Of a DNA stretch of 37,083 bases, positions 3,803 through 37,083 are shown piece after piece (the stretch's first letter is position 1; every line of letters starts with the position of its first letter). The DNA is from Psammoneis japonica. Its lineage: Eukaryota. The notes under the pieces are model-generated. The model saw nothing but the letters and a program-made list of their open reading frames with translations, had not been told where the DNA came from and made no database searches. The DNA lies in assembly GCA_008632985.1 (NCBI GenBank), contig QPGO01000371.1:1-37083 (forward strand), read 5' to 3'. The position numbers and the translations under genes are program-made.

Positions 3803-4334
3803 GTTTGCACGAGGAAGGACCGAGTTGTATGTATATGTTATTTGAAAGCATTCGGATGAATTCATCAGTTCATACTGTACACCTTTACTTACTCCATGAC
3901 TTTTAAATGACGTGGATGTGAGAAAAGGGATGTGCCGGAGGCGTGCTGTCCCATGGTCGGTTGTCCGCTACCAAACCTTCGGAAGCGACGTGCGGACGCA
4001 ACCAATTTTCTGTTTAACGGTGAAAACACTAGTTCATAAAGTAGTATTTTCTTTTGATGTCAATCCTCTTTTCCAGGTACTGCTCATCGATTGTACTGTA
4101 GGGCCCTCTTTTAGGCTACACCAAGCTGTGCTGTGTGCTTGAAAGGATTCATTTCGGTACAACGGTGTGTCTGAAATATGAAAGGGTTCGCCACAACAGG
4201 CGTTTCATCCACCAACATTCCAAATACAAATAGATGTAGCCAGTATTGTCTATAAAACATGAGAATGAACCATAGTTTCAGCCTACTATGCTCTCTAGTA
4301 AAGAGCGTACTCATTTGGCAACTCGCGTCTCGCA

Positions 4335-4818
4335 TCATGACGACTTGGCGTCTTCGCCAGCATGATCGTTGATGCCCATAATATACAGAGGAATAGCGAT
4401 TAGCGTCACGAATGGTACATTGAACGCAGCATGTTACACTTCACCCGTCAGTAAACCAAAGCCCGTATCCAAAACAAACCACACTGCTGTGGAGGTTCCC
4501 AGTGATCGACGCGCCAGGGCTCGAATCGAACCGTCGTTGCTTGCTGCAAGACGCACCACGAACCACATGAGAGTCATCCAGCCGACAATGATGGAACCTA
4601 GCACTCCAAATGCAAACATAGCATAATCAACTCCGTCTGGGTCAAGATTGCGGGTGTTGGGGCCGAAACGAAGTGCATCAAACAGCGTCATGGCAAAGAC
4701 GCGGCCCGATAGCACCATTCCAAGACCGTAGACCGTGACAATTGCGATTTTATACCGCACGGAGAAAGGCGTGTGCTCTTAGATACTGGCGTGATGGTGA
4801 AAATTGTTTGGGTGGCAT
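4335..4818 (-). pseudogene. Small 4-TM membrane protein with a frameshift and an internal stop
   Basis: ATG at 4818 gives MPPKQFSPSRQYLRAHAFLRAV, with a frameshift near 4750 into IAIVTVYGLGMVL...FGVLGSIIVGWM...WFVLDTGF. After an in-frame TAA at 4434-4436 the frame continues as hydrophobic HAAFNVPFVTLIAIPLYIM to TGA at 4335. Confidence 0.55.
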
Positions 4819-5325
4819 TGTATATCCTGTACCTAGTATGTGAGGTGCCTTCTGCATGGATTATGGTTCAAGCTTCATCGTCATCGTGATTCTCGGTGGC
4901 TCCTTTGTTGTGTTGGTCATCGCGTGTTGGAACGTGTTGGAACTTCTTTGAATTTTCAAATTCGGACGCATGGGCGGAATGAAGGACAGACGGATCCGCA
5001 GTTAAGGTTCATAAATATCCATATTGAATATATATTCATTAGAAGTATCATTCATTATGTTCAATGAATTTTCTTCAGCTCTAGAGTTCAAAAAAACTTG
5101 CACTTGTCGGTGTCTGAGATTTCGAGATTGCAGATTGCCCATGGCGGAGTCGAACGTTATCTACATCTCTTGCCTTTGTTGACCTTGGACCGCTGGCGAA
5201 GCACTTTGCAAGTTACAGTATCGCAACGGGAACAACTAATCAAAACATCATCACTGCATGACGCACAACAAACTGGTACGGTAGAGAGCATTTCACAGAC
5301 AGCCAATCTTCATGCGACAAGAAAA

Positions 5326-7677
5326 ATGAAGAACACTGGCAGAGAAGAGAAAGAAACTAGCTTGCGTAGTAGCGAACATCACTTGACTTCTTTAAATCAA
5401 GGGACATCCTCTGGTGTGGCTAGTACTGCGCAGAATCAAACTCATCGTGCTTTTCATCGAAGCACACCCGACGATGGTATTCAAGAACTGCGCTCACCGA
5501 GTTTGCGAAAGAGAGAGGCGGCAGCGACACTGGATGCGGGAGACTCCTCGTCTAGCCAAATGATTGAAGAAAAGCCTCGTCAAAGTGCCACCCGGTCGAG
5601 TGGGAGGTTTGGTGAAGGCGAAAATGATGCTTACATTCAGCCCACACTTCGACAGGTCTCTGGGCGGCAAGTAAAACACGAGGCTGTGGACGATCTAGTC
5701 TCAGAGAAAACGGACATGATGGGCAAAAGTGGGGGACAGAGGCCGCCTACAGATGAAACGGTGGAAACAATGGACGATCTCACAGCAGACAGAAAGGATA
5801 CGCTGAACAAGAACGTGAAATTTCCGCCGCCCATTAAATTGGAGGCTGCGGAAACACTAGACCATGCAGTAGCAGAGGCAGAAATGGATATGATGAACAC
5901 GTCAGATGGCGAAGAACAAGCAGATACGAACAAGGTGGAAACAAGCAAGAATTCAAAGCAACACATGAAGACAGCGCGTGCTTCAAGTCCCTCAATAGTT
6001 GCCAATGCTGGTGCAGATTCCGAGCAAGGAGCAATACAAGCGAGTGCAAGTGCTTCTGCTGGAGATGTCGACTGCGCAAAGACAAGAAAGAGACGATTTT
6101 TTCGTGGCAAGACCAACCGCTCTTCAACAGCGAGTGCACCAGGCAAAGCTTCGAGGAAACAGAGACGCTTTCGAGGCTTTGTCGCCTCCAGAGACACCGG
6201 TGTGACGGATGATGATGCCGTTAGCGGTGGTAACGACGACGAAGAAGGACAAGTTGGTCCGATTGCCGGTGCATATTACGTGAGTGCTGCCGGTGAAGTT
6301 ATCACTCGACAACGGGGAGTCTTGACCTCCCACCCAACCGAGAATGAGCGTGAATTGGAAGGGATCACGGCAGAAGTGACACGCAGACGTAGCTACAACT
6401 CCGACACAAATTTTCTGGAGAAAGAGCAAATCCCATGGTACTGTACGAGAAAATTCAAGCTGATTGCAGTGGCTACCCTGGTTATTGCGGCTGCGGTCGC
6501 CGTTGCAGTCGGTGTTACAGCGGGTGGTGGTGGTGGCACGGTAGCTAGCGAGGCCGAAGAATCTGAGTTCGAAACGAGACGAGCTGTTGTTCGTGCGACT
6601 CTCCTTCCTATTTCTGGTAAAGAGGCGCTGGATGAGCCAGGCTCACCCCAGAACCGTGCGATGAACTGGGTCGCGTTCAATGACACCTCGACTCCAGTGG
6701 GTGAAGATATTACAGACGAAGAGTTGAGCAAATTTATTCGGCGATATTCAGTAGCTGTTGTGTTTTTTGCTACTGAAGGAGAGGCATGGTTCAGAAGCGA
6801 TAACTGGTTGAATGCCGATGTGGAGGAATGCGAATGGGAACACTTATCATGTCAAGGGGGAGAAATTGTGTCGTTCGATACGGGCACAAGAGAGAACAAT
6901 GTTGCGGGGGACATACCGCCAGAGATTGGGCAACTATCGTTTCTGCGTGAGTTGCTGTTGCCCTACAATCGGATTACTGGACTGCCGTCCGAGTTGGGCA
7001 CCCTCAACGATCTGACCTCGTTAGATCTAAAGTTCAACGCCTTGGCGGGTCCCTTCCCTTCTGTGATTTATGAGTTGACGTCATTACAAAAGCTCACGTT
7101 GGATGAGAATGGGCTTAGCGGAACGATTTCAACGGCTATTGCTGCTCTTTCAGAGCTTGAAATATTTGCACTTGCTAGCAACAGTTTCACTGGAGTGCTG
7201 ACTGTCGAGTTTCAGTCACTGGCGGCCCTTTCGGAGCTGGATTTATTCAGCAATTCCTTTCAGGGCGAGGTAAACGATGTGCTTCAAGGCTTGACAAAGC
7301 TTGCGTACGTTAGGATGGACAGCAACGAGTTGTCCGGTACAATACCGACAGAACTCGGCCTGTTCACGAACTTGGTCGAATTGAATCTTGGCGACAATAG
7401 AATTGAAAATTCTACGATTCCTACAGAATTAGGGGTGCTCACTGATCTAGAAGGTATCTTCCTGTTTCGGAACAACATTGTCGGTACGATTCCGACTGAA
7501 CTGGGAAGGTTGATAAGACTGAAGTCTCTCTTCATTGAGGACACAAACCTTGTGGGCTCTATCCCCCCGGAGCTATGCTCTGTGTTTGAAACGGTTCCCA
7601 ATTTCCAAGTGCGACTCTTCCCTACTTGTAATGTCGAGTGCAGTTGCCGTGTCTGCGATCCAGAGTGCGACGTGTGA
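5326..7677 (+). CDS. Type-II single-pass membrane leucine-rich-repeat protein, copy 2 (intact paralog of 1616-3802)
   Basis: First ATG at 5326 (MKNTGREE). Same architecture as copy 1, with shared motifs DDGIQELxSPSL, GRFGExE, ETMDDL, TRQRGVLTS, PWYCxRKFKLIA, LRRs and CxCxVCDPEC. Confidence 0.9.
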   Translation: MKNTGREEKETSLRSSEHHLTSLNQGTSSGVASTAQNQTHRAFHRSTPDDGIQELRSPSLRKREAAATLDAGDSSSSQMIEEKPRQSATRSSGRFGEGENDAYIQPTLRQVSGRQVKHEAVDDLVSEKTDMMGKSGGQRPPTDETVETMDDLTADRKDTLNKNVKFPPPIKLEAAETLDHAVAEAEMDMMNTSDGEEQADTNKVETSKNSKQHMKTARASSPSIVANAGADSEQGAIQASASASAGDVDCAKTRKRRFFRGKTNRSSTASAPGKASRKQRRFRGFVASRDTGVTDDDAVSGGNDDEEGQVGPIAGAYYVSAAGEVITRQRGVLTSHPTENERELEGITAEVTRRRSYNSDTNFLEKEQIPWYCTRKFKLIAVATLVIAAAVAVAVGVTAGGGGGTVASEAEESEFETRRAVVRATLLPISGKEALDEPGSPQNRAMNWVAFNDTSTPVGEDITDEELSKFIRRYSVAVVFFATEGEAWFRSDNWLNADVEECEWEHLSCQGGEIVSFDTGTRENNVAGDIPPEIGQLSFLRELLLPYNRITGLPSELGTLNDLTSLDLKFNALAGPFPSVIYELTSLQKLTLDENGLSGTISTAIAALSELEIFALASNSFTGVLTVEFQSLAALSELDLFSNSFQGEVNDVLQGLTKLAYVRMDSNELSGTIPTELGLFTNLVELNLGDNRIENSTIPTELGVLTDLEGIFLFRNNIVGTIPTELGRLIRLKSLFIEDTNLVGSIPPELCSVFETVPNFQVRLFPTCNVECSCRVCDPECDV

Positions 7678-7719
7678 GCGTTCACCGTGAAAGACTGCCG
7701 TGTTTGGTTTAACATAGTC

Positions 7720-7826
7720 ATGCACTGTGTTTGAAACGGTTCTCGATTTCAAAGTATTGCCACTCTCCCCTACATGCAATCTCGATGGCAGTTGGACCGT
7801 CTTCGATCCGGAGTGCGAAGAATGAG
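7720..7826 (+). pseudogene. Relic duplicate of the LRR gene 3' end
   Basis: ATGCACTGTGTTTGAAACGGTTCTCGATTTC...GATCCGGAGTGCGAAG matches 3703-3800 and 7575-7670 but has lost Cys codons. The following sequence (CATCAGT) resembles the copy-1 3' UTR. Confidence 0.7.
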
Positions 7827-20777: not shown

Positions 20778-23164
20778 ATGAACGGGTCCTACGCACCGTT
20801 CGACCTGGATGCCTTTTCCAATGGCTATCAACAGCAGTCGCCTCAGCAGCAACCACAGTATCAGCAGGGAATAGCACAGCCATGTTATGAAACGTATGAT
20901 CCTCAACATCAGCAACAACCCGTGGTCTTTGACAACCGCCTGTACAATTCTACAGGTCACCATACTGTGCTGCAGCCGGCGCCTGTGTTGGGCGAGTATT
21001 CGTTGGAAGCCGACCCGCTTGTTGTGATACAGCAACAACACCGACAGCAACAACAAAATGCAACGACGACGACGACGACGTGGGCAACAGCATCTACTAC
21101 TACTACGATTCCTCCTACAATTGATCCTCATTTAGAAGCGTTTGCTCATTCGTTTGCAGACGATGATGATGTGATTTTGTCCCCAACACCGCTGAGCAGC
21201 ATGTTGCTACAACAACAACCTGTACAAAATCATTCTCGCAAAATATCTCATACCGAAGAATGGCTCGAAAAAATTTCGATTGATGTTTCGGGTGTGTCGT
21301 TAGAACCCATGACGGGCACACAAATAGTCGAACGAGTCAAGACACGAACAAGCGAAGTGCAGAGACGCTATTTGCCCTGTGTGGATTTTCTCGTGTCGTG
21401 TCAGCAAGAATTACGTGCAGGACTGGCGGCTGCCACGCAGCAACGCCGTTATCATCATCGCGGCGGCATGACGCCACGGCAGTTTTATCAGCGGTATTTA
21501 GAACCGCTCGGTGCCAAGTTTTTGCAACATAACCACGGAAAGATGGAGGTGCAGCATTTGAATCAAGCGCTGGCGGAAATCAAACATCTGTGTGGCAATG
21601 CGAAAAAGGCTGAATATCAGGATGTGAGGGCATGAAGAATGCGTTTTTGGGTGGGATGAAGGATGGAGAATCGTGGGGATTGCGCAAGTGGTTATCCAAA
21701 CACGGTGGGGCGCTTTCGATTTGCAACGATTTGGAATGCATTTTGACGGCAGTCCAGAAAATGGATCGTAATGCAGAAAACACTCGCAGGCTCGCCGAGC
21801 GACTGAGACCCATGGCCAAGAGAACGTTTGATTTGTTGAAACGAGACGTGCCGGATTCGTATCAAGAACAGAGTTCGGCTCATCCGTATTTGCCTTTTTT
21901 TCATCGACTCGAGTGTGCCTTGCGGGGTGTTTCTAATTTTGACCCAGAGGATGACGATGTGATTTGTATTGACGATGACGATGAAGTTCATGAAATAAAG
22001 AAAAAAGCGGCTAGCAGCCCAGCCAAGAGGAAAGCGGAAGTAATGAGTCAGGGACAAGCCAAGCGAAGGAAATCAGAGATTGGTGAGAGCAGCGTCGTGA
22101 CGACGACGACAGCAAAAGCTCGTGGTCCCCTTCATACTATCGCCGAGGGCGGAGATGTTTCGGACGATGACAGCGATATCGAAGTTGTTGGAGTCTCGGG
22201 ACCCGGCAGAAAAGGTATCGTCGGTGCGCCAACCCCACCGCCTGCTCCGGCGGCAGCACCGGTAGCGAAGAAGAGGTCCACCCAGCCCCTACGGTGTACA
22301 CGGTGTACCATGCTCAATGCGGCCTCTAGCACAAAGTGTTGCATGTGTGATCAACCCTTTGATAAGAGTGGCAGCTATGAAGTGGAAGAGGACAACCACT
22401 ATGACGATTCGGAAACTTTTAGTGATTTTGCCGAGATTCCGGGTATGGAGGAAACCACTGCAACACTTGCAGAAGAATTTTGGGGCACAGCAGACGGCTT
22501 GGCGACGGGTACTTCTACCGCTATTTCCACATCTACCGAGGATTCGAATTCGTCCATGACGGCGGACGAAATGGTGCTCTTTATTGAGAACTTGGCGTTT
22601 TTGTTTGAAACCAATCAGCAAGGCACGGTAGTTCCCATAAAGTTGGACAGCTCGTGCTTTTGGAACTCGCGAGTCCAATACGCGAGCGCTCTTCGATTGT
22701 TCGCCTCCATTTTGCAAAAGCGCGACGCACAGCAGTTTCTTGATCCGATCGATGAAGTGCTTTTGGTTGCCGCTGGAAAGCCGCTCTATGGGGATTTGAT
22801 TCGACATTCGATTTGTTTCCGAGACATTTGCACGGCCTTGCAGAGAGACGGCAGACTTCCGGCAGAGTCGACGTTGAAGTGGAACATGTGGAAAGGAAAA
22901 GATTTGTTGCAAGCTATTGACTTAGTGTTTGTGAATTCTCTTGCTTACAACGGCAAGGAAAGGACTAAACAACGGTCCCAAACAAACGCCTTGCGGAAAA
23001 GCTTGTGGGATGGTATAAATTCTACAATAACGTCGGTGCTTGGCGACAATCCAGAGCATCGACGACAATGCTTGCCAACAAGACGAGGGGAGTCGAGTGG
23101 TTTTGTCGTTCACAAGCAACAGCAACCGGCGACACCTACTTTTGATTCTTTTTCGCTTGAGTGA
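20778..23164 (+). CDS. Q-rich protein with RanBP2-type zinc finger and C-terminal bromodomain-like region (one gene, 1-nt frameshift at ~21620)
   Basis: Adding one G at 21620-21621 joins the two ORFs as AEYQGCEGMKNAFLGG. Zinc finger CTRCTMLNAASSTKCCMC; bromodomain-like FLDPID...YGDLIRHSICF...IDLVFVNSLAYN. Confidence 0.75.
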
Positions 23165-23456
23165 CCTTCCTTCCTGCCTGCCGGTGAGGGCTTTGAGCAA
23201 TTCTCGTAATTTTGCTTCCGAGTCTTCGTCGTATGCGATTGGGGAGATTAGACTTTGGACGACGCCGATGCCTAGAACTTACTGCAGACCGGAGAACGGA
23301 CGAAATGCCCGCCAGCGCAATGACGATTTTGGTTCTAATGCCTGATTTCTAGCGAGCAAGAGTCGTCACCAGGTCCTAATTCCTACTGCTAGAAACAAAG
23401 TTTCATACACAGCTAGGGATGGATACCCTTTACACCTTGTGGACTACTAGCTAGGT

Positions 23457-23790
23457 TGTCTCTGCTCATTTATGCACGAGCCCAACGATTTATTGTCGAG
23501 ATCAAGGTCAAGTTCGACAAAACTTCTTACCATACACCGGGGCCATAGCTGGCGTACGGTACAAGTTCCTGCCCGGGCTAGATTCCGTTCGTAGCCCTGT
23601 TGAAGCCACGAGAGCCGAATCTACGAGTGCTATGATAGTTGCGTCCAGGTGAGACAGTAAACATGATCCAAACACCAGGCGAACGTCACGAACGCGACTG
23701 GATTTTCGAGGTGATTACTAGTGAAGATCCGCTGATGACGAGAGCAAGATGGAAAGGAGGAGTTCCGTAAAGCCCTATTCCGCCGTGGAA
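23457..23790 (+). repeat. Isolated repeat fragment with normal TpA/CpG content, homologous to 32160-32500
   Basis: Shared blocks AGATCAAGGTCAAGTTCGACAA, AAGTTCCTGCCCGGGCTAGA, AGTTGCGTCCAGGTGA, AACATGATCCAAACAC, ACCAGGCGAACGTCACGA, GGATTTTCGAG and CCGCTGATGACG. Confidence 0.9.
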
Positions 23791-23891
23791 TGAGCTGTCT
23801 TGTCCCGGTTAAGGTCTCATTGCTCTATCAAACATTATATGCGCCGTAGATTGCAGTGGAAAAACGATATCTACAGTATGCAAATGCAAAC

Positions 23892-24725
23892 CTACTGCAG
23901 CTCGGCTAGTTTCCTTTGAAGTTCCTTCACTGCCGTCTCAGCCGCGTGCCACTGCTGATCCAGGGCACGTCGCTCCTGTTCCACCTTTTTCAACTCTGGT
24001 TCTATGTCACGCAATTCTCGAAAGTACAAATCGATCTCAGCCTTGTATCCAGCGCGTCTTTGTCGCAATTCTTCCATTTCTTGACTTTTACGAGCGCGGA
24101 CTCGACGAAGATTGTCAACTTCCCGCTTTATAGTCCCGTCGTGATCGTGCGCAGCATATCGTTGGTCGTAGTCGTCCAGCATACGTTGCGTTCGTTCCCA
24201 ATACGCCAAAAAGGCTTGCTCTTCCTGGTCGATTCGACCAATCACATCCTGAAGTTCCGGCATGCGGTGATTCTTAAAATGCTTCAACTTTTCCAAGTAC
24301 GCCTGCAAGTCCTGAGAGTAAGTTTCCTTTTGATGCAGTGCTTCTGCCAAATCGTCACGGAGCCGAATCGCCTCGCTCAATTTGGATTGGAAATGAGTTC
24401 TGGCTCGTCGTTGTTGATTCCGTTTCAGTTCCTGTTCCCAAGCTTCCCTTGCCTTTTGGTTCTTGTCCATAGCATTCTGGAACCGCTGTTGGAAGGCTTC
24501 CAAATCTGCGTTGGCCATGCGTTCTAGTTCGTTCTGGACCAACTCGAACGATACTGTTGGATTCTTGATGGCCGCCATTTTTGTGACGAGTTCCACAAAC
24601 TGTTCATAGTAACTGGGCACCTGATATCCATACTCCTCGGCAACACGTAAATACGGATCAAGGGTATCCGTGAAGTCTTTGAGCTGTTCAAAGATGTCCA
24701 ATGTTTCCAATACAACGGATGGCAT
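23892..24725 (-). CDS. 277-aa coiled-coil protein of unknown function
   Basis: Intronless ORF rich in E/Q/R/K/L with heptad-like periodicity over most of its length. Confidence 0.75.
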   Translation of the reverse strand: MPSVVLETLDIFEQLKDFTDTLDPYLRVAEEYGYQVPSYYEQFVELVTKMAAIKNPTVSFELVQNELERMANADLEAFQQRFQNAMDKNQKAREAWEQELKRNQQRRARTHFQSKLSEAIRLRDDLAEALHQKETYSQDLQAYLEKLKHFKNHRMPELQDVIGRIDQEEQAFLAYWERTQRMLDDYDQRYAAHDHDGTIKREVDNLRRVRARKSQEMEELRQRRAGYKAEIDLYFRELRDIEPELKKVEQERRALDQQWHAAETAVKELQRKLAELQ

Positions 24726-24763
24726 GATGGTTTTGGTTTGGCGTTTTGTGTTTTTGTGGCATT

Positions 24764-25020
24764 ACCTGGTATCGTCTTTTCGCATTTTGGTCGGGGTTCA
24801 GTGCGAGTCGAGGGAAATTCTCCTCTGCAAGACTCACTCGGGGCGGATATAAGGCATTACACCTGGTATCGTCTTTTCGCATTTTGGTCGGGGTTCAGTG
24901 CGAGTCGAGGGAAACATTACACCTGATATCGTCTTTTCGCATTTTGGTCGGGGTTCAGTGCAAGTGTGATAGAGTCGAGGGAAATATTCTTCTGCACGAG
25001 TCAATCGGGGTGGATACAGC
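24764..25020. repeat. Three tandem copies of a ~54-bp unit in the divergent promoter
   Basis: ACCTGGTATCGTCTTTTCGCATTTTGGTCGGGGTTCAGTGCGAGTCGAGGGAAA at 24764, 24861 and 24921 (third copy has a small insertion). The ~40-bp segments after copies 1 and 3 are also related to each other. Confidence 0.9.
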
Positions 25021-25136
25021 ATCAGTCGTGCTTCTTCGGCACGAGTCGGGGCACTCCATAAAAATGGAATTGTGCAAAGAATCTCATCAAAACAACAAGA
25101 TATTCCTGTGAAACTATAAGGGAAGACGATTCGATC

Positions 25137-26998
25137 ATGAATGCAATGCCAGAAAACACAGACGACGATCATGAAGAAGGAGGGGATCCGAACCCCCATA
25201 CAATGACAAAATCCGAACGAGTCGGTTGTACGGTTGGAGGTGTTGCCACGGCAGCCGCAGGCGCAGCGGCGATTTATGTCACCGCGCCGATTGTCCTACC
25301 AGCGTTTGGAGCGTTGGCAGCCGGTAGTGCCACCGCTTCTGCTGTCGCCACAGCTGGTGGGTACGTGGCTGGAGCTGCCGGGGTCGGAGCGGGGGCTACT
25401 TCGGCTATTTTTCCTTGGGTTGCATCCCGTGAGAATCAAACCTGGAGCAATGTAGGTCAAGCTGCTGGTGTCGGCGCCACGGTAGGAGTGGTAGTATCTG
25501 CGTTGCCGTTGGCTGTCATGGCAGCGGCAGGAGCAGGGGCCGAGAACAATTCTTCTTCTCAGGGTGGCTCGCAGTCATCATCGGGTAATGATTCCTCTTC
25601 GACGTCTAATCAAAATCAGTCCAACGAGGAAGTTGACGAGCTGAAGGGGTCAACAGGGCAAAATTCTGCTGACAGCAAGGAGAAGAAAAAGAAGGATGAA
25701 GCGGCGAAGAATCCGGCTACTTGCGCCGCTGGGAATAAAGAACGGAAAACTCCTGCAAATCATGTGGGCGTAGATGGAACGAACTTGAACATGACCCGAA
25801 ACTATTCCAAAGGTCCACCTCCTGCAGCGCCGAAATCACAATCTGCAGACCCCTCAAATGTCAAGCCGCGAGGACCACAATATCACTGCCGGGATGAATC
25901 CCAAGAGCAGAAGGCAAAGAGGCCTCACGGTCACGGACAAAACCCTCGAGCTGCACCTGAGCAGCCAGCAAGCGCACCCGGTGGAACTCAAACCCCAGGA
26001 AATCATCATCATCAGCAACAACAACAACAAGAAGAAACCTCAAAAACTTGGGGCGCCAGCGCCGGAACTCTAAGCACCGTCGGTACAACACCGCAAAACA
26101 GAACAGATGGATATCCAAACGGAAAACGCAACAACACCAAGAATCCGACCGCCAGTGCCAGCACACCAAGTACTACCGGTGGTACGTCACGAAAAGGAGG
26201 AACAAATGGAAACGACAAGAATCCCAAGAATCACTTTTTCAAACGGGGACCACAGGAACCAAATCATCGCTTTTCCCGTACCGATAACGACAACAAGAAT
26301 ATGTCGACATGGGATGATACGATGCAGATGGTTGACGATGTCGAAGATGTCGTTGGTGAAGGTTTCGTCAAAGTCGATGTCAATGGTGAGGTGTACATCG
26401 ACCCACAACGTCTTGGTGAGATGACCCCGGAGGAGAAAAGTATCTTGGATGACATCAGAGCCAGAACAAACCGGCGCCGCACGATCCGTTCGAAAGGCAG
26501 ATGGATGATCCAGCAGGATATGACCGCGGACATTTCACTGCTGACGATGAGGATGGTTCTGAAGTAACACCAAGCTTCAACAGAGAAGACGACCACAAGA
26601 ATGGGTCGATTTCCATGAATATTGTAAGAGATATCGAGAATAAAAAGCGGATGCACAATCCTTTCCAACTAACAAATGGCCTATTCGGCCATCAACATTA
26701 CACCAACGACGATGCGGATTCGGAACCACCGACAAGTTTCGGTCGACAAGACGAAAATTCATTGCCTGGCTTCATGAGCCCAGATGATTTTCATGCCTAT
26801 GTTGATGGAATGAACAGTGATCAGCTGGACTTCATCAGACGCCAAATCCATGAATCGATGGGCAGATTGTGGACCCAACTGCAACAAGAGATTCGAGAAG
26901 GTGCCACGGCTAGTGAGATCAACTTACCCTCCCCATTGGACCCGTCCTTCTTTGAATTTCGCCCGCGACCGACGTACTCGGCAACCTATTCTCGCTAA
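25137..26998 (+). CDS. Gly/Ala-zipper membrane region + disordered linker + putative DRGH (His-Me, EndA/NucA-like) nuclease domain; frameshift at ~26470
   Basis: ORF 25137-26567 overlaps ORF 26501-26998. One extra A in the run at 26468-26470 fuses them (IRARTKPAPHDPFERQMDDPAGYDRGHFTAD). The motif spacing GYDRGH..A....GS...N....M...IEN..R...Y......P.SF resembles non-specific endonucleases. Confidence 0.55.
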
Positions 26999-27614
26999 CA
27001 TAACATTAACGATGATTGAAAACTCCACGTCACTAACTCGAGCGCTAATTATTCCAATGCCCTGCTGGAACTAACAAAGACACACACTTGAACACCAGAT
27101 GGTTACTTTGATTTTCACGTGGCTATGACCTCGACATTCATTGGCACAAATTGTGATCACTTCAACCCATTCCCTGCCCCTCTTGGCAAGAGCCCCCATT
27201 CTTTCACTTGGAGGGGCCAGACTTGACTGGATCTGATTTAATTGGAGTTCCATGGATGAAAAGCAGCATGGTGTGAGTGTTCATGAGTTTTGAGCCACCT
27301 GAAGCCACAACGCACACACCACAGTGATCGCACCAATGCAACTTGCTTGGCAGCATTGTCATCATGGTCACCAGATTCCTGGGCATCCAAATGGGAGAAA
27401 AATTGGTGCACTGGATGCTTGATCAAGGAGCATCTCCGTCAATTGTCCCACCTGGACAGGGCCTTGGCACAGAGGTGCTTTGTGGCTGACAATCAAGCTG
27501 TTGCTTCTCTGTGATGTCACATGTGGTCAAAATCCAACTGGCACAATCCGAGTCTGATGTCAAACCCTCAGGTGCACCTGTCTTGTCCTTTTGCTCCCAT
27601 GCACAATGATGCAG

Positions 27615-28023
27615 ATGAGAGCAGTGGTTGGTGTCATTGTGCGTGATTGTGGTGGTGGGTTCTTTTGGTTTTGGTTGTGCTGTCACCCACCTTTTCAGTT
27701 CCTTTTCTGTGCAAAGAGCTGCAAGAAGCCTGCTCTCAGTTGCCACAATTGTCAAACCCTTGCTGCAATTTTGTTCACCAGACACAAGCACTTGTTGCAA
27801 GTGCAGCATTTCAAAAAAGTGTGACCAACTTGGTTGGTGGATTGTCCACTGTGCTTTCTGGAAGCAATGTTGTCAAGTTCTTGCACAGCTCAATGTGGTG
27901 TGTTGCAGATGAGTCACATTGTTCCTTTGCTCCCACACAGGCCCTGAGGAATGTTGAGCAGATGTGGTGTGATCCAGCATTGCACCTGCTTCAAGCCAGG
28001 AGATGATTGTGATCTGCACTTGC
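27615..28023 (+). repeat. Degenerate repeat copy A (homologous to 31305-31889)
   Basis: Shared blocks TTTGGTTGTGCTGTCACCCACCTTTTCAG, CTGCTCTCAGTTGCCACAATTGT, TCAAGTTCTTGCACAGCTCAATGTGG and CCCTGAGGAATGTTGAGCAG. It lacks 187 bp present in copy B. Confidence 0.85.
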
Positions 28024-28140
28024 CTGTCCATGTGCATGCACTGTTGTTCTTCTCTGCCCACTGCTGGGTTTTTACTCTTGTGAGCTTGTTCTGCTTGCTC
28101 ATTGCCTCTGCTGGGCATGTGGCGACACATGCTGCACTTC

Positions 28141-28660
28141 CTTTGTCCAGCCATTGCCTGTTTCTGATTCCTGCCAGCCAGCTGGCTGCTTTGTCCATTG
28201 CATCCCAGTTGACATTGCAGAAGCTTTCACTTGAAATTGTTTCTGGCAGACCCAGTGCTGGCAGATGAGTTTGGTGCCACGAAGCTTTGTCAATGTGTCC
28301 CTGCTAAAACCAGCAACATTTTGTCCTCTGTCCTGTGCTGTGGAGCTGCAGGGAGGGGGTGGTCTGTGCTTTTGCCACAGATTGCATGTGGTGATGTGTG
28401 CCACACTCTCTTTGTCCAGCCGTTGCCTGTTTCTGATTCCCGCCAGCCAGCTGGCTGGCTGCTTGTCCATTGCATTCCAGCTGATGTTGCAGAAGCTTTC
28501 ACTTGAAATTGTTTCTGGCAGACCCAGCACTGGCAGATGAGTTTGGTGCCATGAAGCTTTGTCAATGTGTCCCTGCCAAAACCAGCAACATTTTGTCCTC
28601 TGTCCTGTGCTGTGGAGCTTTGGGGAGGGGGGTGGTCTGTGCTTTTGCCCCACAGATTGT
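28141..28660. repeat. Tandem duplication, period ~270 bp (28141-28385 / 28410-28660)
   Basis: Near-identical units containing TTGCAGAAGCTTTCACTTGAAATTGTTTCTGGCAGACCCAG and AAAACCAGCAACATTTTGTCCTCTGTCCTGTGCTGTGGAGCT. Confidence 0.9.
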
Positions 28661-31304
28661 CCATTTGTGTCATGTTGAGCAGCATCAAAATCAATTGAGC
28701 AGGGCTCCATGTGAGTTTGTTCTTGGCGGTGCTCTCAAAGTGTTTTGGCAGTGCTCTCAAAGTTTCAAAGTTGTTGGAGTAATTGTGGCTGTTGTGTCTG
28801 AGGGCTGGGCAACTTTGTTGTTGTTTTGCTTCACCAAATGTCTTCCACCAAGCATGTGGTCACTCACAGTCCTGAAATCTCTGCTCTGCATGATTGATGC
28901 TGCATCTCCTGGGTGGCAGGTCACATTGTTCTCTCTTTAAAAGAGCGCCCTTGTCACAAATGCTGGGATTTTCCCAGCACTTCTTGTTTTGCTCAACCAG
29001 TGCCACTGGCCATGCCCTTTGTGTGAAGATCCTCAATGCACCACTTGTGGCTGGGCAGATGCTGCTGTGTTCATTGCATCAGGGGTGCAAGAGGTGGCTC
29101 TGCCTGCAGCTTCTTTCTCACCAGCATCAGCCCTGGGTGCTGGAGCACACCCTTCCTTGTGACAGGCCCAGGTCCATTGCACATGCTGTGTGATGGCCTG
29201 CTCCAAATCAAATGTGCCTGCAAATTGCTGGTCTGAATGATGACCATGCACTTTTGTTGTGGGTGCCATTGGTGCAATCAATTTTTGAAGAGAGATGAGC
29301 AGAATCAGGGCAACTTCCTCTTGCTGGTCTTCTTGACTGTCCATGGGTCAAGAAGCTCAGGGCCCTTGTCTCCAGATCCTCCAATCTGATGTTGAGAGTT
29401 TGCTCTGTGCTGTTGAGTGGTGGAAGGACAAGAGGTGTCACACATGTGTCTCCCTTGCCATTCCATGCAACTGCTGGTGCAAGCATTTTCTATCACCCAT
29501 CATGACATCAGCTGGCATGCTCACTCAGAGACATTTGTTGCACAGGCCAAGAGTTTGGCACCCGCTCCAAAAAAAAAAATCCTCTCTGCAATTTTTTCAG
29601 AATTCAGAAGGAGTGCACCATTGTCCAGGCAATGACTTTTGTGGGTTTGTGGCTTGCCCTCTCTTTGACATGGGTGCTGTTCTCCAACATGAACCACCGC
29701 CAATGTTTGGCCCATGAATGGGTTGCAAGTGCTCCAAAGATGTTGTGTGGGTTTGTCCAAGAATGTCCCTCCACTTTGGTTTCTGGTTTGTGTTTCTTCA
29801 ACAGTTCCCAGAAGAACTTCTCCTGTGGTTGTTTGCTGTTTTTGTTTGACCAAGGCTTTGACATGTTTCCTGGACAGGACAAACTCGCTCCACAGACCAA
29901 ATCCCTGAAATCCCTTTTGCTCCCAAGCACAGATCTCAGAAATGCCCTGCTGCATGGCCCTGCCATGATCAAGCCTTGCCTGACAACCAGTGCCTTGATG
30001 TGCCTGCCCCAGCTACTTGGAGATGAGACTCTGGGGCAAGAAAAGGGCAGCCCATTGCCCCCTGCATGCACTGAGTCTGGGAGAGCCAGGCACCCAATGG
30101 GTGTGAGCAATTGCAACATTTTGCTTCTGAGTTGTCATTGTGCGTAATTGGGAAGATTGTTTTTTGGACAATGCAGGTGCCTGGAATTTGCTGCAAACCA
30201 ATGAACAGATGAAATGCCGCCAGTGCAATGACAATTTTGCTGCCAGAAACAAAACTTTCACGCACATCCAGCACAAAAAAAAAAATCCAATTTTAGGTGC
30301 TGTTGCACCTTTGCCCAGCAACACCAGTGCCGGCTGACCCACAACTCCAGTGCACCCTGCAAGGGGTGCAGCAGAAGATCGTGCGATCAGTTGGTCAACG
30401 TGCCGCTTTGCAGCAATGCACACCAGAGACAAAAGGTCAAGGGGAAATTGCACCAGAAGGAGATCATTGCTTTCTTTTGGAGAGGATTTAATGCACCCAA
30501 ACTGCCACAGCAAAGGACAATCATGTCAAGCAGAGAATTCAAAGCCAGCGCAAACTCTGAGAGAAAATCTTTGCCTCTGAGGGAGAATCTTGTCTTCAAC
30601 AAAGACTGACTGAATTTCACAATTGTGCAGACCAGAACAACAGCATGCAGTTCACTGCTCAGAACTGTGATCTTGGCAGGCCAGCAAGCAGAAAAAGGGA
30701 TGTTCGGGACTTGCAAGGATGAAATGGGAAGTCTTGGCAATGTGATGAGAAGGTCGCCAGAAGAAATGTCATTCTCACTTAGAATCGACACTGAATCTTG
30801 CGCACAAAAGCCAATCCATGCAGCAAATGGACGGTCGTCAGGTGATGCCAATGGTTTGTCCATGCAAACACCCGCAGGTGCCACAACAGGGACAGTGCTT
30901 TCACCACATGAGGTGAAGAACTTGAGCAGCCAGTGGAAGCAAAAGAAATTGTTGGGGGCTTTTGGGCATGGAAGAAGGAAGTTGATCGCATCGGAGACGC
31001 AATGACAGCCGGTGCACATTTCTGAAGTGCGCAGAATTTGCACTGGATTCTGTGTAGAAATTGCACTGAATCTGCAAAAAAAAATGCCAAATAAAACAAC
31101 AAGCACGCGAACCACAAGGTGTCGACACCAGTCATTTTCCACTAAAAATTGTTGCACATCATGGAGATGAAAGGGTGCGCCAATGGCGGAAGATTCCAAA
31201 AGGTTGAAAAGGGCGACATCAGCACAAGAGCACACGCAGAAACACATGCAGGGGCTGCCAGTGGGTGCTTGCACAGAAAAGCATGCACATCCAGCACAAA
31301 GATG

Positions 31305-32500
31305 TGGTGAGGGCAGTGGTTGTCATGGTGTGCAGTGGCGGTGGGTTCTTCTAGCTTTGGTTGTGCTGTCACCCACCTTTTCAGCAGAACCTCCATTTCT
31401 GCACAAAGAGCTGCTCTCAGTTGCCACAATTGTGATTCCCTCACTGCAACTTTGTTCACCGGACACAAGCACTTGCAAGTGTGGCATTTCAAAAAAGTGT
31501 GAGGACCAACTTGGTTGGTGGATCCTCCACTCTGCCCTCTGGAGCTAATGTGATCAAGTTCTTGCACAGCTCAATGTGGCGGTGCACTGCAAATGAGCCA
31601 CATTGTTCCTTTGCCACCACAGACCCTGAGGAATGTTGAGCAGCTGCACAGTCCAGCATTGCACCTGGTTCAAGCCAGTCTTCCAAGAGGAAAGCCACTG
31701 AAAGTCCTCATCTTGAACATTTGACCATTCCCTTGCAATGCAGCCTTCAAGAGCAGGAGCTGATCCCATTGATGACATGTTGAGAAAGAACAGCTCCCTT
31801 TGCAGCAGCGGGTTGGTGATGGATTGGCTCTGCAGCTCAGTGCCACAATGGGTCCTCCAGGCCAGGAGATGGTTGTGATCTGCACTTGCTGCTGGTTGAT
31901 GTGCATGTGCTCCTGTGGTTCTTCTCCAGAGCCACCAAGTGACTGTCCTTTGACCTTTGAAGCACACACACTTGCTCTCTGGAGATTTCACAAGGAACCC
32001 CCAAACAGCTGGCTCTTTTGGAAACTTTTGAGACCTTGAAGCCAGTCTTCTGATTGGCACCCCAATGCAGAAAAGCCAAAGACAGCGATTGAAGATCATG
32101 TCGTGCGACACCATGTGAAAGAGGCGGGCAGCATTGTGACACCAGTTCGAACAAAGAGGGTGTCTGCTCATCTGTGCATGAGCCCAATGATTTCTTGTCA
32201 AGATCAAGGTCAAGTTCGACAATGCTTCTTGCACTGGGGCCACAGCTGGCATGCGGCAGAAGTTCCTGCCCGGGCTAGAGTCGTCTGCAGCCCTGTTGGA
32301 ACCATGAGAGCCGAGTCTACGAGCGCCATCACAGTTGCGTCCAGGTGAAACAGTGAACATGATCCAAACACACCAGGCGAACGTCACGACAAACACGAGT
32401 GGATTTTCGAGTTTGTTCATCACGAGGTGACTGCAAGCAAAGGGCGACCCGCTGATGACGGGAGCAAGAAAAGGAGTTCCACAAAGCTCTGTTCCACTGG
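31305..32500 (+). repeat. Longer degenerate repeat/gene relic copy B; 5' part matches 27615-28023, 3' part matches 23457-23790
   Basis: Direct alignment by eye to both other copies. The plus strand shows broken protein-like frames (WVLLALVVLSPTFS..., LALWRFHKEPPNSWLFWKLL) that I cannot assign to a family. Confidence 0.8.
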
Positions 32501-33222
32501 GAGTTGCAGGAAAAAACAATTGTTGCACTGCTGCTTGATGGCACGGATGATGCGACACGTGGCAGCTTTTTTTGCAGCATTGTTTGTCTGCCGCATTGCC
32601 CCGCAAACAACATCATCATCTTGTCTGCCAGTTGTCATGCTGGGTGTGTCTGTCGTGGAAACGAACAGAGGGCTGTTTCGTGCTTTGATTTTTGTGCTGA
32701 GAATCTTGAAATTTGCCATGCGAGAGGAAAAGTGAGTGCTTTTGGTTGAAGAGAAATGGAGTCAACCAACCACAAGCTTCAATGGGTGTGAGACAAGAGT
32801 GTGGTTTTGAAGCTCGGCATCGGCATCTCTGTTGCATCCCCATCATCTGCGCGCGGAATCATCAGAAAAAAAAATGCATGCGCGCACCGCGCTGAGGCAC
32901 TGCCGGCATCTGTCTGCACCCCGCAAGGCTGACCACAAAAAAGCGCGGGAAGCACACATCACAATTGCGTCATCGGTGGGTGCATTTTCATCCCCGGGCA
33001 CGCTGCCGCCACCCGCCCATGCATCACGGAGATGCAGTCCGGCGCATGCTGTGGGCCCCATGACAGTGCTGCAGGGCCCTGCTGTGGGTCCACCTGTGGC
33101 AGGTGGGGAGGAGGGGTTCACTTTTGCTCGCGATTGACTCGCGAGGCGTTGCATCGACAATGAGATCAAGGAACATTCACGGCAACATCATCTTGGCGAC
33201 AACATGCTTTCTGCTGTTGATT

Positions 33223-34119
33223 TTAGTTGTCAAAATGATCCACATCAAATGGTGAGTGACCCATCATGAGGGCCAACTGTGTGATGTTGGCCACGGCATG
33301 AAACACATGGCAATGTGTTTCCTTCGCGTGGCAGCATCTTTTGTTGAGCATTCCGAAACGCTTGAACCATCCATTGACAGCCTCATGCCTTGCCCTTGCT
33401 GTTGTTTTCGTGGCCTCGTCTGCATTTCTTAGGCCGGATGGAGTCGAGCTGCACTGGCTCCCGTTGCTGCGGCCACCGTCGGCCAGACACATCTCGCCGT
33501 CTTCAAGCTCTTCAATGATCCATTCATGAGCAATGTTCAGATCCGGCAACCCAGCTGGGTGCGGCCCATTGACCCAAACAATCCACCCTGTCTGAATGCA
33601 TGTTCCAATTTCATGCCGCAGCCCAGCACCGTGGAATTTGTGGGAGAACCACATTGGATCGAATGGTGATGGCTCGTAGATTCTGAAATCAGTGCCGTCG
33701 AGTGTCACCAAACATCTGCTGCCATTGTCATCAATGAAGCGGTCTTCCCAGTGAATCTAAGAACAAGGTGTCAGTCCATTTGTTTCACACACATGAGCAA
33801 TGTCTGGAATGGTGCGCGCCAAATTCAACTGTCCAACAAGTTGAATTCTGACCCAAACCCATTTTCTCAGCGTGTCTTCATGGATTTTATTACAGATGCC
33901 AGCAACGACTGTCTCAGATTCATGCAATTTGAGAAAGCAAAGGGTGTGGAGCAGGTGAATGGGCAAAAAACCTTGTGGCATTTTCCCGTCGTCAATGAGA
34001 AGCCCCCACAACTCAGATGCCACTTCTTCTGGGGTGCAGAAGCATGCTGCAGGTGACCCTTTTGGCTTCTGAATGATCGTCTGTGCCAAGCACTCTGTGG
34101 CCTCTTTGGGCAGTCTCAT
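33223..34119 (-). mobile_element. PIF/Harbinger DDE transposase pseudogene (2 exons; intron 33757-33819)
   Basis: Exon 1 has HLLHTLCFLKLHESE...EDTLRKWVW. Exon 2 has IHWEDRF...CLVTLDGTDFRI.EP...WFSHKF.GAGLR[H]EIG.CIQTGWIVWVNGP...LADGG...ARARHEAVNG.FKRFG, matching the Harbinger/DDE_Tnp_4 pattern. Acceptor TTCTTAG is intact and the donor reads GCGCGC. Confidence 0.88.
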
Positions 34120-35051
34120 GATTGGCAATTGGCAGTGTGCCACAGTGTGTCACTTTAGCGTTTGTGCCAGTCTCTGCCACTGGCAGCTGCTCTCTGCTCT
34201 GCAGCAGCTGGCTGCTCTAGAGAGTGGCACAGCAGTTGTTTGACATTTGACAATTGTGTTTTGTCGTCTTCACGCAGTTGGGGTTCTCATTAGAAGAGGC
34301 CTTTGGTGAGATTCCGTCGTGTTTGAAGAAAATACGAAAAAAATGCGATTCGGGTGTGGTTTCCGAATGGTGACTTTGGGACGTTCGCAATGGGCAACTT
34401 TGGGCGTCGTTTTGTCAACCGGAACACGGTAGAATGACCATTCCAACGCGTGCTCTTAGCTCAACTAACACAGCAGTTTACATGCAACATGTGACACAGA
34501 ATTTTAAAACCACAATCCATGGTTGGTGGTGCATTAAAAAAGCATTCTCATTCTACAAATCGAAATGAAATCGCCTTTTCACAGACGAAAAGCGCACGGA
34601 AATGTGCCAATGAAAAGCCAAAATGAACATCAGGAGCTAGTTTGCCATCAGTGCCATCACAAACACACACCAAAGCTTGGGATTCAGCCACTCATTCTTC
34701 AGTTGAGATGGTCCAAAGTCATCGTTCTGGAGCTGAAAATCATTTTGGGTGTGATTTGGGAACAATTTTTGTGTGGTCTTGGAATGTTTTTCGTGTGGTC
34801 TTGAGGGAATCTTCGTTGTCAAGAGGCCCTTTCTCAATGTTGGCGGTTGGTGTTTTCTCAAATCTCATTTTGGCGGTTGGAATTTATTCAAATTTGAAAA
34901 GAGCGTCACGCGGATGGTGGTGAGGTAAGTTTGTTGTGACCCATTCAAAAATGGGGTTCTCATTGCTGCCCGTCAACGCGAATGCTGATCTTGACGACTC
35001 TCGACTGTGCACCATCAATCCTCTCACAAAAAAGAGAAAACCAAAGAAGCC

Positions 35052-36233
35052 ATGCCCAAACTCAACCAACGAACCAAATCGGTTCTTGACACTGAGGCTG
35101 CCGGCCCCCTTCGAGCAGTGTGGCGCAAGGGGTCCGCCGACTGCAAACTCTTGAAGGAGATGCTGATGGATGGCAGGGCAAGCGCTGGGAGCGACGCCAA
35201 AAGAGATCCAGCAGATGCGCGCAGAGTTCATGCGCTGTCCACTGGACAAGTTCCGCACTGGCTTGCACAGGCTCAAAGACGAAACCGGGTTCAATCTTCG
35301 TCGAACGATGAACGACAGCAATGAGAACCCTGACGGTGAGTTTGATTTTCACTGCATTCGCACATGCACGTGAAATAAATGTGAGTGACATCACTGTGTT
35401 GCCGATGCGTGCATTTTCATTTGACCACACCGCGCGGTGTTCTTTTTTTTCATCTGGCCACAGACACCGACGACAGCGACGAAGAGCTGTTCTCGGGTGG
35501 CCTTGACAGCACTCGTCGGACGGCATCAGCTCCAGCTCCTGCAAACAACAACGATGCAGCTGCTGTCATGAATGGAGCTGGTGTTGCTTCTGTGATGGAG
35601 GCACGTGGTGGTGGGCAAGGAGGTTCTTGGAAAAGCTTCAAGCCCATGGTTTTGCAAGCTGCTTGCAAGGACTCTGTCACCAAGACCAATCATGTCGTGG
35701 TTGTTGTGGCTCCATCTGGTGTTTGCACCACGGACCTTTCTGGCATCCAGCTGTCTGTTGTGAGCAATGGGTGGATGCTCAGTTGCATTTTCCAGTGGCC
35801 ACAGCACTCCATGGACATGGATGCTCTTCACGCAGTTCTCCTTGATGAAGCCACTGCCCAAGGGGGAAACCACGGTGGCGATGATGAACTCCGTGACATC
35901 TACAAGCGCCTTGAAGCTCTTTCAGATGAGCTGTCTTCAATGAGGCAGTCTGACTCTGAGGTCCTGTCTTCCACAGCCCTCGTGCCCTTGCCAATCCAGG
36001 TCTCTAGGAAAATCAACAAGGTTCATTTGTTGGGTGGTCGCGATGGGTCCAGGATCATTTGTGTGGACCTCAAGTCGGAAGATTCGACATGCTGCGCTGT
36101 GGAGAATCCAAAAGTCAAGTTGATTGATGCCACAGGCGATGGTGTTGGACTCATTGGCTGCAATTGGGAGCTGGACGCCAGCGGACAGGATGCACATGCA
36201 TTTGACACAATGCACAGATTAGGACATTTGTGA
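35052..36233 (+). mobile_element. Probable second (DNA-binding/accessory) ORF of the Harbinger element, degenerate; intron 35336-35463
   Basis: Divergent from the transposase, as is common for two-ORF Harbingers. WRKGS...LLKEML.DG.[fs ~35188].TPKEI...RAEF...PLDKFRTGL.RLK is a helical motif. The GTGAGT...CACAG intron splices in frame to DTDDSDEE. The true stop is uncertain because TA stops are eroded. Confidence 0.55.
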
Positions 36234-36389
36234 TTGTCAGCAACTGATTGGCACAACAAAACATTCTTTCAACAACAGTCTCCACAGCTGCCACTGTGGC
36301 AGCAGCAGGGCCTGCTCTAGCCAGCAGAGTAGACTGCAGTTTGACTCGGCGATGAACTCGGCAGTGCGAGCACAGCAGTGCTCACGTCT

Positions 36390-37083
36390 TTGGCTTTTTA
36401 AACAGAAGATTAAGGGAGCCCATGTAGAGCGGAAGGAACAGCAGAGGGAGGCACAGAGGTGGCTGTAGAGACGGCAGAGAAGAAGGGTCGAAGGACGCAA
36501 GACGAAGGGCGTTTTGAGGAAGGTGTGGGTGAGGAGGGAGCAGGGAGAGAGGAAGTGAATCAGAGGATGTGCGTAGAAAGGTGAAGAACGACGTTGCAGC
36601 CAAGAGTTTGGGTGGCCCACTGGGATGGGGTGGCTGTGCGGCAGGTGCTCCCAAAGCGATCGGCAGACAGGCGATGCCATGCGAAGTCAGCAGAGGGAAG
36701 GATTGCAGACGGAGACGACAAAGCGTAGAGGAAGGTGGAGCAGGAGGCATCGGAGTGACGAAAGTCAGAGGAGAGGACCAGGGTGGCTTGGGCTGAGAGC
36801 AGACGGAGGAGGATGTAGAGCCAAAGAGCAAGCGGTGAGCAAAGTGGCCGAGACCACCAAGGTGATCTACAGTGAAGGGGAGCAGGAAGATGCCATTGTT
36901 GTCAAGCGAAGAAAACAACAAGGGATCCATCGGCAGAGGAAGTGAGAGGGGCCAAGAAACTTCAATCTCGCGCTCGAGTGTGTGCCTCAGTTGAGGCAGG
37001 AGAAGAGGGGGGCAGGCAGACCTGGAGGAGGGCGGAGGAAGCTTAGGGACGGCAACGTCCACTGCAATGTAGTGATGGTGGGA
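36390..37083 (-). mobile_element. 3' end of a degenerate non-LTR retrotransposon with restriction-like endonuclease (CRE/Ambal-like)
   Basis: DVAV...LLPFTVDHLGGLGHFAHRLLFG matches the C-terminal RLE pattern (D-V-x-V...P-F-x-V-D/E-x-x-G-x-L-G). The coding strand is pyrimidine-rich, frameshifted, and has a short A-run near 36395-36399. Confidence 0.55.

Follow-up and report, generated by a model that had tools for sequence, protein, structure and literature searches.

How does a block of DNA that adjoins ordinary genes come to lose nearly all of its TpA dinucleotides? The question is raised by a 37,083-nucleotide stretch of the genome of the pennate diatom Psammoneis japonica (contig QPGO01000371.1 of assembly GCA_008632985.1, positions 1 to 37,083 of the forward strand), referred to here as the window. 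An earlier note on this DNA, made from the sequence alone, had compared two copies of one repeat and proposed that a targeted A-to-G mutator had acted on a TA-poor domain. We have examined this domain further and consider it probable that two separable mutational processes rewrote, in place, a transposon-derived block extending from ~27.2 kb to the end of the window. The first process would be a locally targeted and almost complete conversion of TpA to TpG or CpA (A:T to G:C change at TpA only). The second would be a slower decay of CpG to TpG or CpA, most simply through deamination of 5-methylcytosine (5mC) in CG-methylated, silenced transposons.

Results

A sharply bounded domain depleted of TpA and CpG

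From ~27,240 to the end of the window at 37083, the observed-to-expected ratio (O/E) of TpA was 0.05–0.13, compared with 0.57 in the remainder of the window, and that of CpG was 0.17–0.66, compared with 1.05. The domain so defined is 9,844 bp long and consists of two sub-domains with different degrees of CpG loss (Table 1). At the dinucleotide frequencies found outside, 374 TA and 605 CG would be expected in the domain; 53 TA (−321; ~86% removed) and 262 CG (−343) were observed. TG and CA exceeded their outside frequencies by 390 and 285, respectively. The combined loss of TA and CG (−664) was therefore matched by the combined gain of TG and CA (+675), and the GC content stayed at 0.49–0.52. 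GpC was also enriched (+182 over the outside frequency, O/E 1.15–1.26), as expected if GTA to GCA and TAC to TGC are frequent products.

The TA deficit is far beyond chance and sharply bounded. The lowest local TA O/E in the domain was 0.02; in 1-kb windows, the maximum inside (0.24, n=36) lay below the minimum outside (0.34, n=105). The series of ordinary TA ends at 27239, with no further TA before 28073. The left edge, between 27125 and 27240, was common to TpA loss and CpG loss within ~100 bp, and lies ~100–250 bp beyond the end of a long flanking open reading frame (ORF), next to the gene region. The 27 kb of genes outside the domain had ordinary composition (in the one window examined). 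The finding of the earlier note stopped at 32500. The domain itself is real, but this end is too short: the depletion runs to 37083, its right edge lies past the window end, and the domain probably continues there. The suggested sliding-window profile of TpA and CpG O/E, computed within the window, shifts abruptly near 27.2 kb, and the sharp edge beside the gene region bears out the proposed confinement to a repeat-rich block.

An excess of TG over CA in raw counts between 27.2 and 30.2 kb vanished once base composition was corrected for (O/E 1.81 vs. 1.82). Both strands are equally affected.

Table 1. Coordinates and composition of the features discussed in the text (O/E, observed-to-expected ratio)
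Feature	Position	Strand	TA, CG, TG, CA (O/E)	GC content	Basis or remark
Outside the domain	1–27239		0.57, 1.05, 1.14, 1.11	0.48	
Hypermutated domain, TpA/CpG-poor and TpG/CpA-rich	27240–37083	.			Dinucleotide composition and fine map
Sub-domain 1	27240–32250	.	0.05, 0.17, 1.81, 1.82	0.49	TpA and CpG both nearly erased; mostly single-copy at at least 80% likeness
Sub-domain 2	32251–37083	.	0.13, 0.66, 1.47, 1.60	0.52	TpA nearly erased, CpG partly lost; high-copy repeat families
~330-bp repeat, outside unmutated copy	23458–23781	+			Non-coding, between two genes; no overlapping ORF longer than 68 aa
~330-bp repeat, inside hypermutated copy	32160–32495	+			blastn, MAFFT, local alignment
Harbinger/PIF-type DDE transposase pseudogene (DDE_Tnp_4)	33229–34134	−			One frame, one in-frame stop; tblastn span
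Tandem duplication	28115–28659	+			2 × ~272 bp, 90% identical; copies 28115–28384 and 28384–28659
Direct repeat, left copy	27601–28054	+			Partner 3.68 kb away, 79% identical
Direct repeat, right copy	31294–31926	+			Partner of 27601–28054
Member of very high-copy repeat family	30260–31399	.			Summed depth 2400–4900; no protein relatives

Direction of change in a repeat present inside and outside the domain

The ~330-bp repeat on which the earlier note had relied is indeed present both outside and inside the domain (Table 1). The two copies were 77% identical over 348 columns by blastn, and were also aligned by MAFFT. A local alignment contained 43 mismatches, 35 of them transitions and 8 transversions. 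Of the 16 TA in the outside copy, 6 read TG and 6 read CA inside, 2 had changed otherwise, and 2 (in the contexts CTAG and CTAC) were kept; the 23 CG gave 5 TG and 4 CA, with 14 kept. The change is directional, as had been claimed: conversions of TA to TG or CA numbered 12 in the outside-to-inside direction and 0 in reverse (binomial p 0.0005), and conversions of CG to TG or CA numbered 9 and 1, respectively (binomial p 0.02).

The change is also specific for the two dinucleotides. Transitions affected 12 of 32 A/T bases within TA, compared with 10 of 124 other A/T bases (Fisher p 1.3e-4), so that the excess at TpA over other A-to-G contexts, without which the idea of a TpA-directed mutator would have failed, is present in this pair. 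Among G/C bases, 9 of 46 within CG and 4 of 110 elsewhere had undergone transitions (p 0.002).

As a control, we used a repeat with both copies outside the domain (2682–3803 vs. 6554–7826, 78% identical). Here, the two directions were balanced (TA to TG/CA, 8 vs. 8; CG to TG/CA, 12 vs. 17) and transitions hardly outnumbered transversions (124:115). Thus, the asymmetry is specific to the copy that lies inside the domain. The control repeat is a 1.1-kb duplication in and beside an ORF for a leucine-rich repeat protein (5068–7677).

A transposase pseudogene provides polarity from a protein outgroup

A Pfam search of 19 long ORFs of the window and of all 80 ORFs of at least 70 aa extending past position 27000 (78 of them inside the domain) found a single family in the domain, DDE_Tnp_4 (PF13359, E 2e-6, 28 bits vs. 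a cut-off of 24.8). The match is a Harbinger/PIF-type transposase, whose in-frame stop marks it as a pseudogene; its TA O/E was 0.09 and its CG O/E 0.54. Twenty full-length homologs (E 1.6e-51 to 1.4e-12, 31–55% identity), one of them from the diatom Seminavis robusta, served as a protein outgroup for polarity.

The window transposase was identical to the homologs in 88 of the 111 columns conserved among them. None of the four conserved Tyr columns was kept: three had changed to His (CAT) and one to Arg (CGC). Five of eight conserved Arg columns were kept, the other three having changed to His (CAT), Trp (TGG), and Cys (TGC). In its 307 aa there is 1 Tyr, while the median Tyr content of the homologs is 3.4%. 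These codon changes stand beside ordinary decay (the stop and transversions). TAY to CAY and CGN to CAN or TGN are the codon changes expected of the two conversions, so TA and CG are the ancestral states. The opposite polarity, with the TA-poor state ancestral, had been named as an outcome that would overturn the earlier proposal; with no conserved Tyr left, it fails.

We also scanned metagenomes for relatives of this transposase. The scan, whose patterns favour intact copies, gave 358 confirmed stretches. Only the best 80 were retained, and none of these 80 environmental relatives had a TA O/E below 0.34 (range 0.34–0.99).

Mutation continued in place after local duplication

The tandem duplication within sub-domain 1 revealed the same changes between neighbouring copies. 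Their 22 mismatched bases comprised 21 transitions and 1 transversion, and 17 of the 22 belonged to interconversions among TA, CG, TG, and CA, i.e., among pyrimidine–purine (YpR) steps. TG and CA products were mixed within 30 bp. Six double differences of the TG↔CA type were seen, compared with 2 among the 239 mismatches of the control pair, and five more were found between the two direct repeats. A double of this kind is produced when the two copies of an ancestral TA or CG are converted independently, each on a different strand. Their presence between local duplicates shows that mutation continued after duplication, and at the DNA level.

The direct repeats themselves look like long terminal repeats (LTRs) or a segmental duplication. 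They could be LTRs of a decayed non-autonomous element; the interval between them yielded no reverse transcriptase or integrase.

In the high-copy right half, the window has TG at 34916, 35661, and 36846, while all placed contigs of other copies (7, 6, and 17, respectively) have TA. These are three of the best-supported differences listed, and they imply that less converted copies exist elsewhere in the genome. A pocket at 34156–34638 contains 12 TA in ~480 bp within the TA-poor domain. One X1 contig joins 34477 to 35319 without the intervening 841 bp, so other copies lack 34478–35318. The pocket and the absent piece may represent a nested insertion of younger age, or a part of the domain that has mutated less.

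Sequence context and loss of stop codons

Of the 53 TA surviving in the domain, 6 had A before or T after, as against 486 of 1034 outside (p 1e-7). ATA and TAT fell from ~10 per kb to 0.3, while TTA/TAA and CTA/TAG fell only to 1.6–2.5 per kb. This hints at a preference beyond the dinucleotide, with ATA/TAT removed most thoroughly. Some surviving TA may be new ones produced by back-mutation.

Compared with the outside, TAA dropped from 7.1 to 1.6 per kb in the domain and TAG from 9.0 to 2.5 per kb, and the domain contains many long open frames (up to 352 aa). Three of these were searched. No relatives of ORF 35385–36230(+) were found among 1575 candidates, ORF 30390–31322(−) had 0 matches among 1.84 billion representatives, and ORF 31557–32612(−) gave no usable Atlas match and had low recognition. 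We rejected all three as genes and read them as by-products of TAA and TAG loss. A gene caller would probably predict spurious genes across 27240–37083. Moreover, blocks changed in this way diverge by more than 20% from their relatives, and the repeats are thereby hidden from annotation.

Support for the bases in public sequencing runs

Contigs were built from exact 31-letter words of three public sequencing runs (X1, X2, and X3). When words of the window were sampled, a fraction of 0.85 was present in run X1 and 0.29 in run X2 of one public study. The listing of runs that contain the sequence included no RNA run. An X1 contig of 3,061 nt (depth 61.7) spans 25185–28244 with 4 differences, and thus bridges the domain edge at a single-copy depth equal to that of the flank (55–62). 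Further X1 contigs cover 28590–30311 (1 difference) and 31244–32525 (2 differences). No X2 contig was found across 27410–31969, and no X3 contig was placed on the window. The earlier note had allowed that the changes might be absent from reads; they are present in contigs of a public run, the platform of which is off record. Contigs at ~60-fold depth, built from exact words, are hard to reconcile with a base-calling artefact.

Contig depth also separated the two halves of the domain. In sub-domain 1, it was ~62–66, except at 27980–28549 and 30260–31399. In sub-domain 2, summed contig depth was 150–4700. Two parts of the domain, 30260–31399 and 33110–37083, correspond to high-copy families with a summed depth of 880–4900. 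Differences among the 1,671 placed contigs were dominated by transitions (A>G 169, G>A 182, C>T 175, T>C 138; each transversion 16–34). At 27325, in the single-copy part of the domain, the window has TG and the sole X1 contig there has CG; the difference may stem from a recent mutation, from allelic variation, or from an error of assembly.

Flanking regions

An allantoicase gene flanks the domain; its best named relatives are in pennate diatoms, at 53–61% identity (Asterionellopsis, Amphora, Seminavis, Nitzschia, and Pseudo-nitzschia), which assigns the source of the DNA to this group. Contig depth over 21140–23419 was 2–4 times that of the flanks, and several contigs there swap short stretches for other letters, with joints at 21432, 22201, 22399, 22858, and 22989. 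No Pfam family was found in the ORF at 21614–23164. The segment looks like a small, variable multi-copy gene family.

Discussion

Two processes acting on one block

The block would be a nest of old and young transposon-derived repeats. CpG decay would be nearly complete in the left half, which is presumably old, since it is mostly single-copy at at least 80% likeness, and partial in the younger, high-copy right half. In sub-domain 2, TpA is nearly gone (0.13) while two thirds of CpG are kept (0.66). Thus, TpA conversion was faster than CpG conversion and independent of it. The same figures fit poorly with error-prone, polymerase-eta-like repair near deaminated 5mC, which the earlier note had offered as a candidate.

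The CpG component calls for little that is new. The Arg codon changes in the transposase (CGN to CAT, TGG, and TGC) and the CpG deficit both fit 5mC-driven decay. In Phaeodactylum tricornutum, according to the portion of the source available, loss of DNMT5a removes methylation globally and de-represses young transposable elements (TEs) (PMC9998398). By analogy with such TE methylation in diatoms, CG methylation of the domain is most simply assumed.

The TpA component is most likely, again by analogy, the work of a candidate TadA/ADAT2-family adenine deaminase acting on DNA with T at position −1. Natural substrates of this family have U at −1. The same strong preference for U at −1 is described for ADAT-derived A-to-I editing of mRNA in fungi (PMC11156358, in the part available). 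Targeting would appear to depend on chromatin that is silenced or foreign, not on pairwise homology, since the outside copy of the ~330-bp repeat is untouched.

Several observations weigh against this reading or limit it. A>G change on one strand cannot be told from T>C change on the other. In the pair of repeats, 14 transitions lie outside TA and CG contexts, and 10 of them are A:T>G:C in the outside-to-inside direction, though a comparison of two sequences leaves all 14 unpolarised; the 10 changes among 124 A/T bases not in TpA may mean that specificity is looser, or that it was the outside copy that changed. At 34916, 35661, and 36846, the window letter is absent from all placed contigs. 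Run X1 represents one sample of one study, sequenced on an unrecorded platform, and is possibly the source of the assembly itself; long X1 contigs of near-identical sequence were obtained for the left half of the domain only. Extreme TpA loss was seen in none of the best 80 environmental transposase relatives, in a search biased to intact copies. Finally, the system most like this one, in the chlorarachniophyte Bigelowiella natans, is described in the accessible text without a G:C>A:T component, so that the CpG loss here would either come from an independent process or mark a real difference between the two.

Relation to known systems

In mutation-accumulation lines of B. natans, two integrated viral regions received 231 of the 302 nuclear single-nucleotide mutations, 230 of which were A>G or T>C. 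Each GC-biased one among them lay at TpA and produced TpG or CpA. The mutations arose in some lines only, at ~6e-7 per site per generation, a de novo rate elevated ~1000-fold in culture. In the B. natans genome, 124 clusters of 1-kb windows are depleted of TpA and enriched in CpA and TpG, and DDE endonuclease and reverse transcriptase domains are over-represented among coding sequences low in TpA. As a candidate enzyme, the authors suggest a DNA adenine deaminase resembling ADAT2 (Mettrop et al., bioRxiv 10.64898/2026.01.13.699255, as far as the text was available). The text available to us mentions neither diatoms nor CpG (0 occurrences). The statement of the earlier note that no such system was known therefore holds for diatoms, but not generally, since the preprint describes TpA-only hypermutation.

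The two systems are alike in several respects. In both cases, A:T>G:C change at TpA yields TpG and CpA on both strands; it is confined to blocks of foreign or mobile DNA, the rest being ordinary (here, in one window); and the TpA-depleted, TpG- and CpA-enriched footprint is tied to DDE-transposase genes. There are also differences from what the accessible parts of the preprint report. The lineages are a pennate diatom (Stramenopila) and a chlorarachniophyte (Rhizaria). Depletion reaches an O/E of 0.05–0.13 over 10 kb here, whereas Rho is 0.45 in the nucleocytoplasmic large DNA virus (NCLDV) region of B. natans. CpG decay coincides with TpA loss here, whereas there is virtually no G:C>A:T change in B. 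natans. The content of the domain is transposon-like, and no viral gene was found in it, in contrast to the viral inserts of B. natans. The evidence here is a footprint, while in B. natans de novo mutations were observed. Since the CpG component is separable, the lack of G:C>A:T change in B. natans does not exclude membership of the TpA component in the same class. On this comparison, the TpA component appears to be of one kind with the B. natans process, in a lineage far removed from it.

Fungal repeat-induced point mutation (RIP) likewise ruins repeated and mobile DNA by dinucleotide-specific transitions and leaves sharply bounded aberrant blocks. RIP of ascomycetes consists of C:G>T:A changes, mainly CpA>TpA; it creates TpA, lowers GC content, and mutates both copies of a duplication. 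Here, as the earlier note had recognised, the direction is the opposite: TpA is destroyed by A:T>G:C change, TpG and CpA are enriched, and GC content is unchanged. In addition, the outside copy of the repeat is intact (16 TA, 23 CG), although at ~330 bp it may be below a length threshold. Of the RIP-like A-to-G mutator that had been suggested, the targeted A:T>G:C mutator is thus supported, while induction by repeats is doubtful.

Ordinary 5mC decay shares with the present case the change of CG to TG or CA and the confinement to repeats. It leaves the TpA loss unexplained, which is larger and faster and runs in the opposite compositional direction. Deaminase defences (APOBEC3, ADAR, and fungal ADAT-derived editors) are similar in that a base is deaminated with a preference for its neighbour. 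APOBEC3 converts C to U on DNA and gives C>T, not A>G, while ADAR converts A to I on double-stranded RNA and, to our knowledge, is absent outside animals. We know of none of these systems that erases TpA in chromosomal DNA. No description of the TpA signature in diatoms was found in the literature searched, which did not cover subscription journals. Within that literature, this is the first diatom case found and the most extreme footprint of the process met.

Other explanations

The best surviving alternative, which we nevertheless consider unlikely, is a single deaminase of dual specificity that would attack, in silenced chromatin, adenine after T as well as cytosine or 5mC before G in DNA. 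The common left edge of the two losses would follow directly, as would the products, both dinucleotides giving TG if the base of the plus strand is deaminated and CA if that of the minus strand is. ADAT2 that deaminates both A and C in DNA is known from amphioxus and Trypanosoma, as cited in the accessible part of bioRxiv 10.64898/2026.01.13.699255. Yet the two losses are uncoupled in degree (TA 0.13 and CG 0.66 in 32251–37083 vs. 0.05 and 0.17 in 27240–32250), the process in B. natans yields, by the same text, almost no G:C>A:T change, and ordinary 5mC decay explains the CpG loss without a new enzyme.

A less probable alternative shifts the target to thymine. A TET/JBP-type dioxygenase would oxidise the T of TpA to 5-hydroxymethyluracil (5hmU) or 5-formyluracil, which mispairs with G and gives T>C. 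In dinoflagellate DNA, 5hmU is enriched at TpA, which is also where base J occurs in telomeric repeats, and T>C transitions are a known effect of 5-formyluracil. The strand-symmetric products (TG 1.81, CA 1.82) fit T>C as well as A>G, so this reading is equally compatible with the sequence. What speaks for adenine is that the only study of the phenomenon, in the text available, proposes adenine deamination, itself a proposal (bioRxiv 10.64898/2026.01.13.699255).

Far less probable is that transcripts of the repeats underwent ADAR-like hyperediting (A>I with U at −1) and that reverse transcription fixed the result in the genome. Transitions do dominate among the copies (138–182 each vs. 16–34 per transversion), and ADAR prefers U at −1, a 5′ preference that matches, as the accessible discussion of the B. 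natans preprint points out (bioRxiv 10.64898/2026.01.13.699255). However, a DNA transposon of the Harbinger type, which has no RNA intermediate, is affected; the tandem duplicate kept mutating in place; both strands are equally affected, with TG and CA intermixed within 30 bp; and the domain edge is a chromosomal position. Moreover, the de novo mutations reported in the available part of the B. natans study were in single-copy, transcriptionally silent DNA.

We regard it as just as improbable that the signature is a base-calling or assembly artefact, in which modified A was read as G and 5mC as T. The uncertain platform of run X1, and the chance that it holds the assembly's own data, leave some room for this. 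On the other side, contigs at a depth of ~60 match with 1–4 differences per 1.3–3 kb; a strand-dependent error would yield a mixture of calls instead of clean TG or CA; matching codon changes occur in the transposase alongside ordinary decay; and the same signature is present in Illumina reads of B. natans, according to the accessible text.

The least probable explanation is native composition or selection, i.e., that foreign DNA had always avoided TA and CG, or that UpA and CpG were selected against in transcripts. Many RNA viruses and mRNAs are poor in both CpG and UpA, but this reading is refuted by the polarity obtained from the outgroup and from the repeat pair. In addition, the near-total depletion extends to non-coding DNA and a pseudogene, a TG↔CA double can only come from a TA or CG ancestor, and the best 80 transposase relatives have TA O/E values of 0.34–0.99. 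Biased gene conversion among repeats was rejected, because it cannot give TpA specificity and opposes the direction of CpG>TpG change.

Implications

There is hardly any record of targeted A:T>G:C hypermutation in chromosomal DNA, its sole description in the literature searched being the B. natans preprint. The stronger signature in a diatom means that the process is not a curiosity of one species, and links it to ordinary transposons as well as to viral inserts. Since gene knock-outs, methylomes, and chromatin maps are available for some diatoms, an experimental search for the enzyme becomes feasible. Builders of base editors would also have an interest in a natural DNA adenine editor specific for TpA. 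We suggest, tentatively, that diatoms share with a chlorarachniophyte a TpA-directed DNA-editing defence, which would be a eukaryotic genome-defence mutator with a polarity opposite to that of RIP, and either ancient in the Stramenopila–Alveolata–Rhizaria (SAR) group or spread between marine algae. In this diatom, the defence would have gone nearly to completion on silenced transposons. It may also be linked with CG methylation, possibly by way of a single enzyme that recognises both self-complementary YpR steps, TpA and (m)CpG, and turns each into TpG/CpA.

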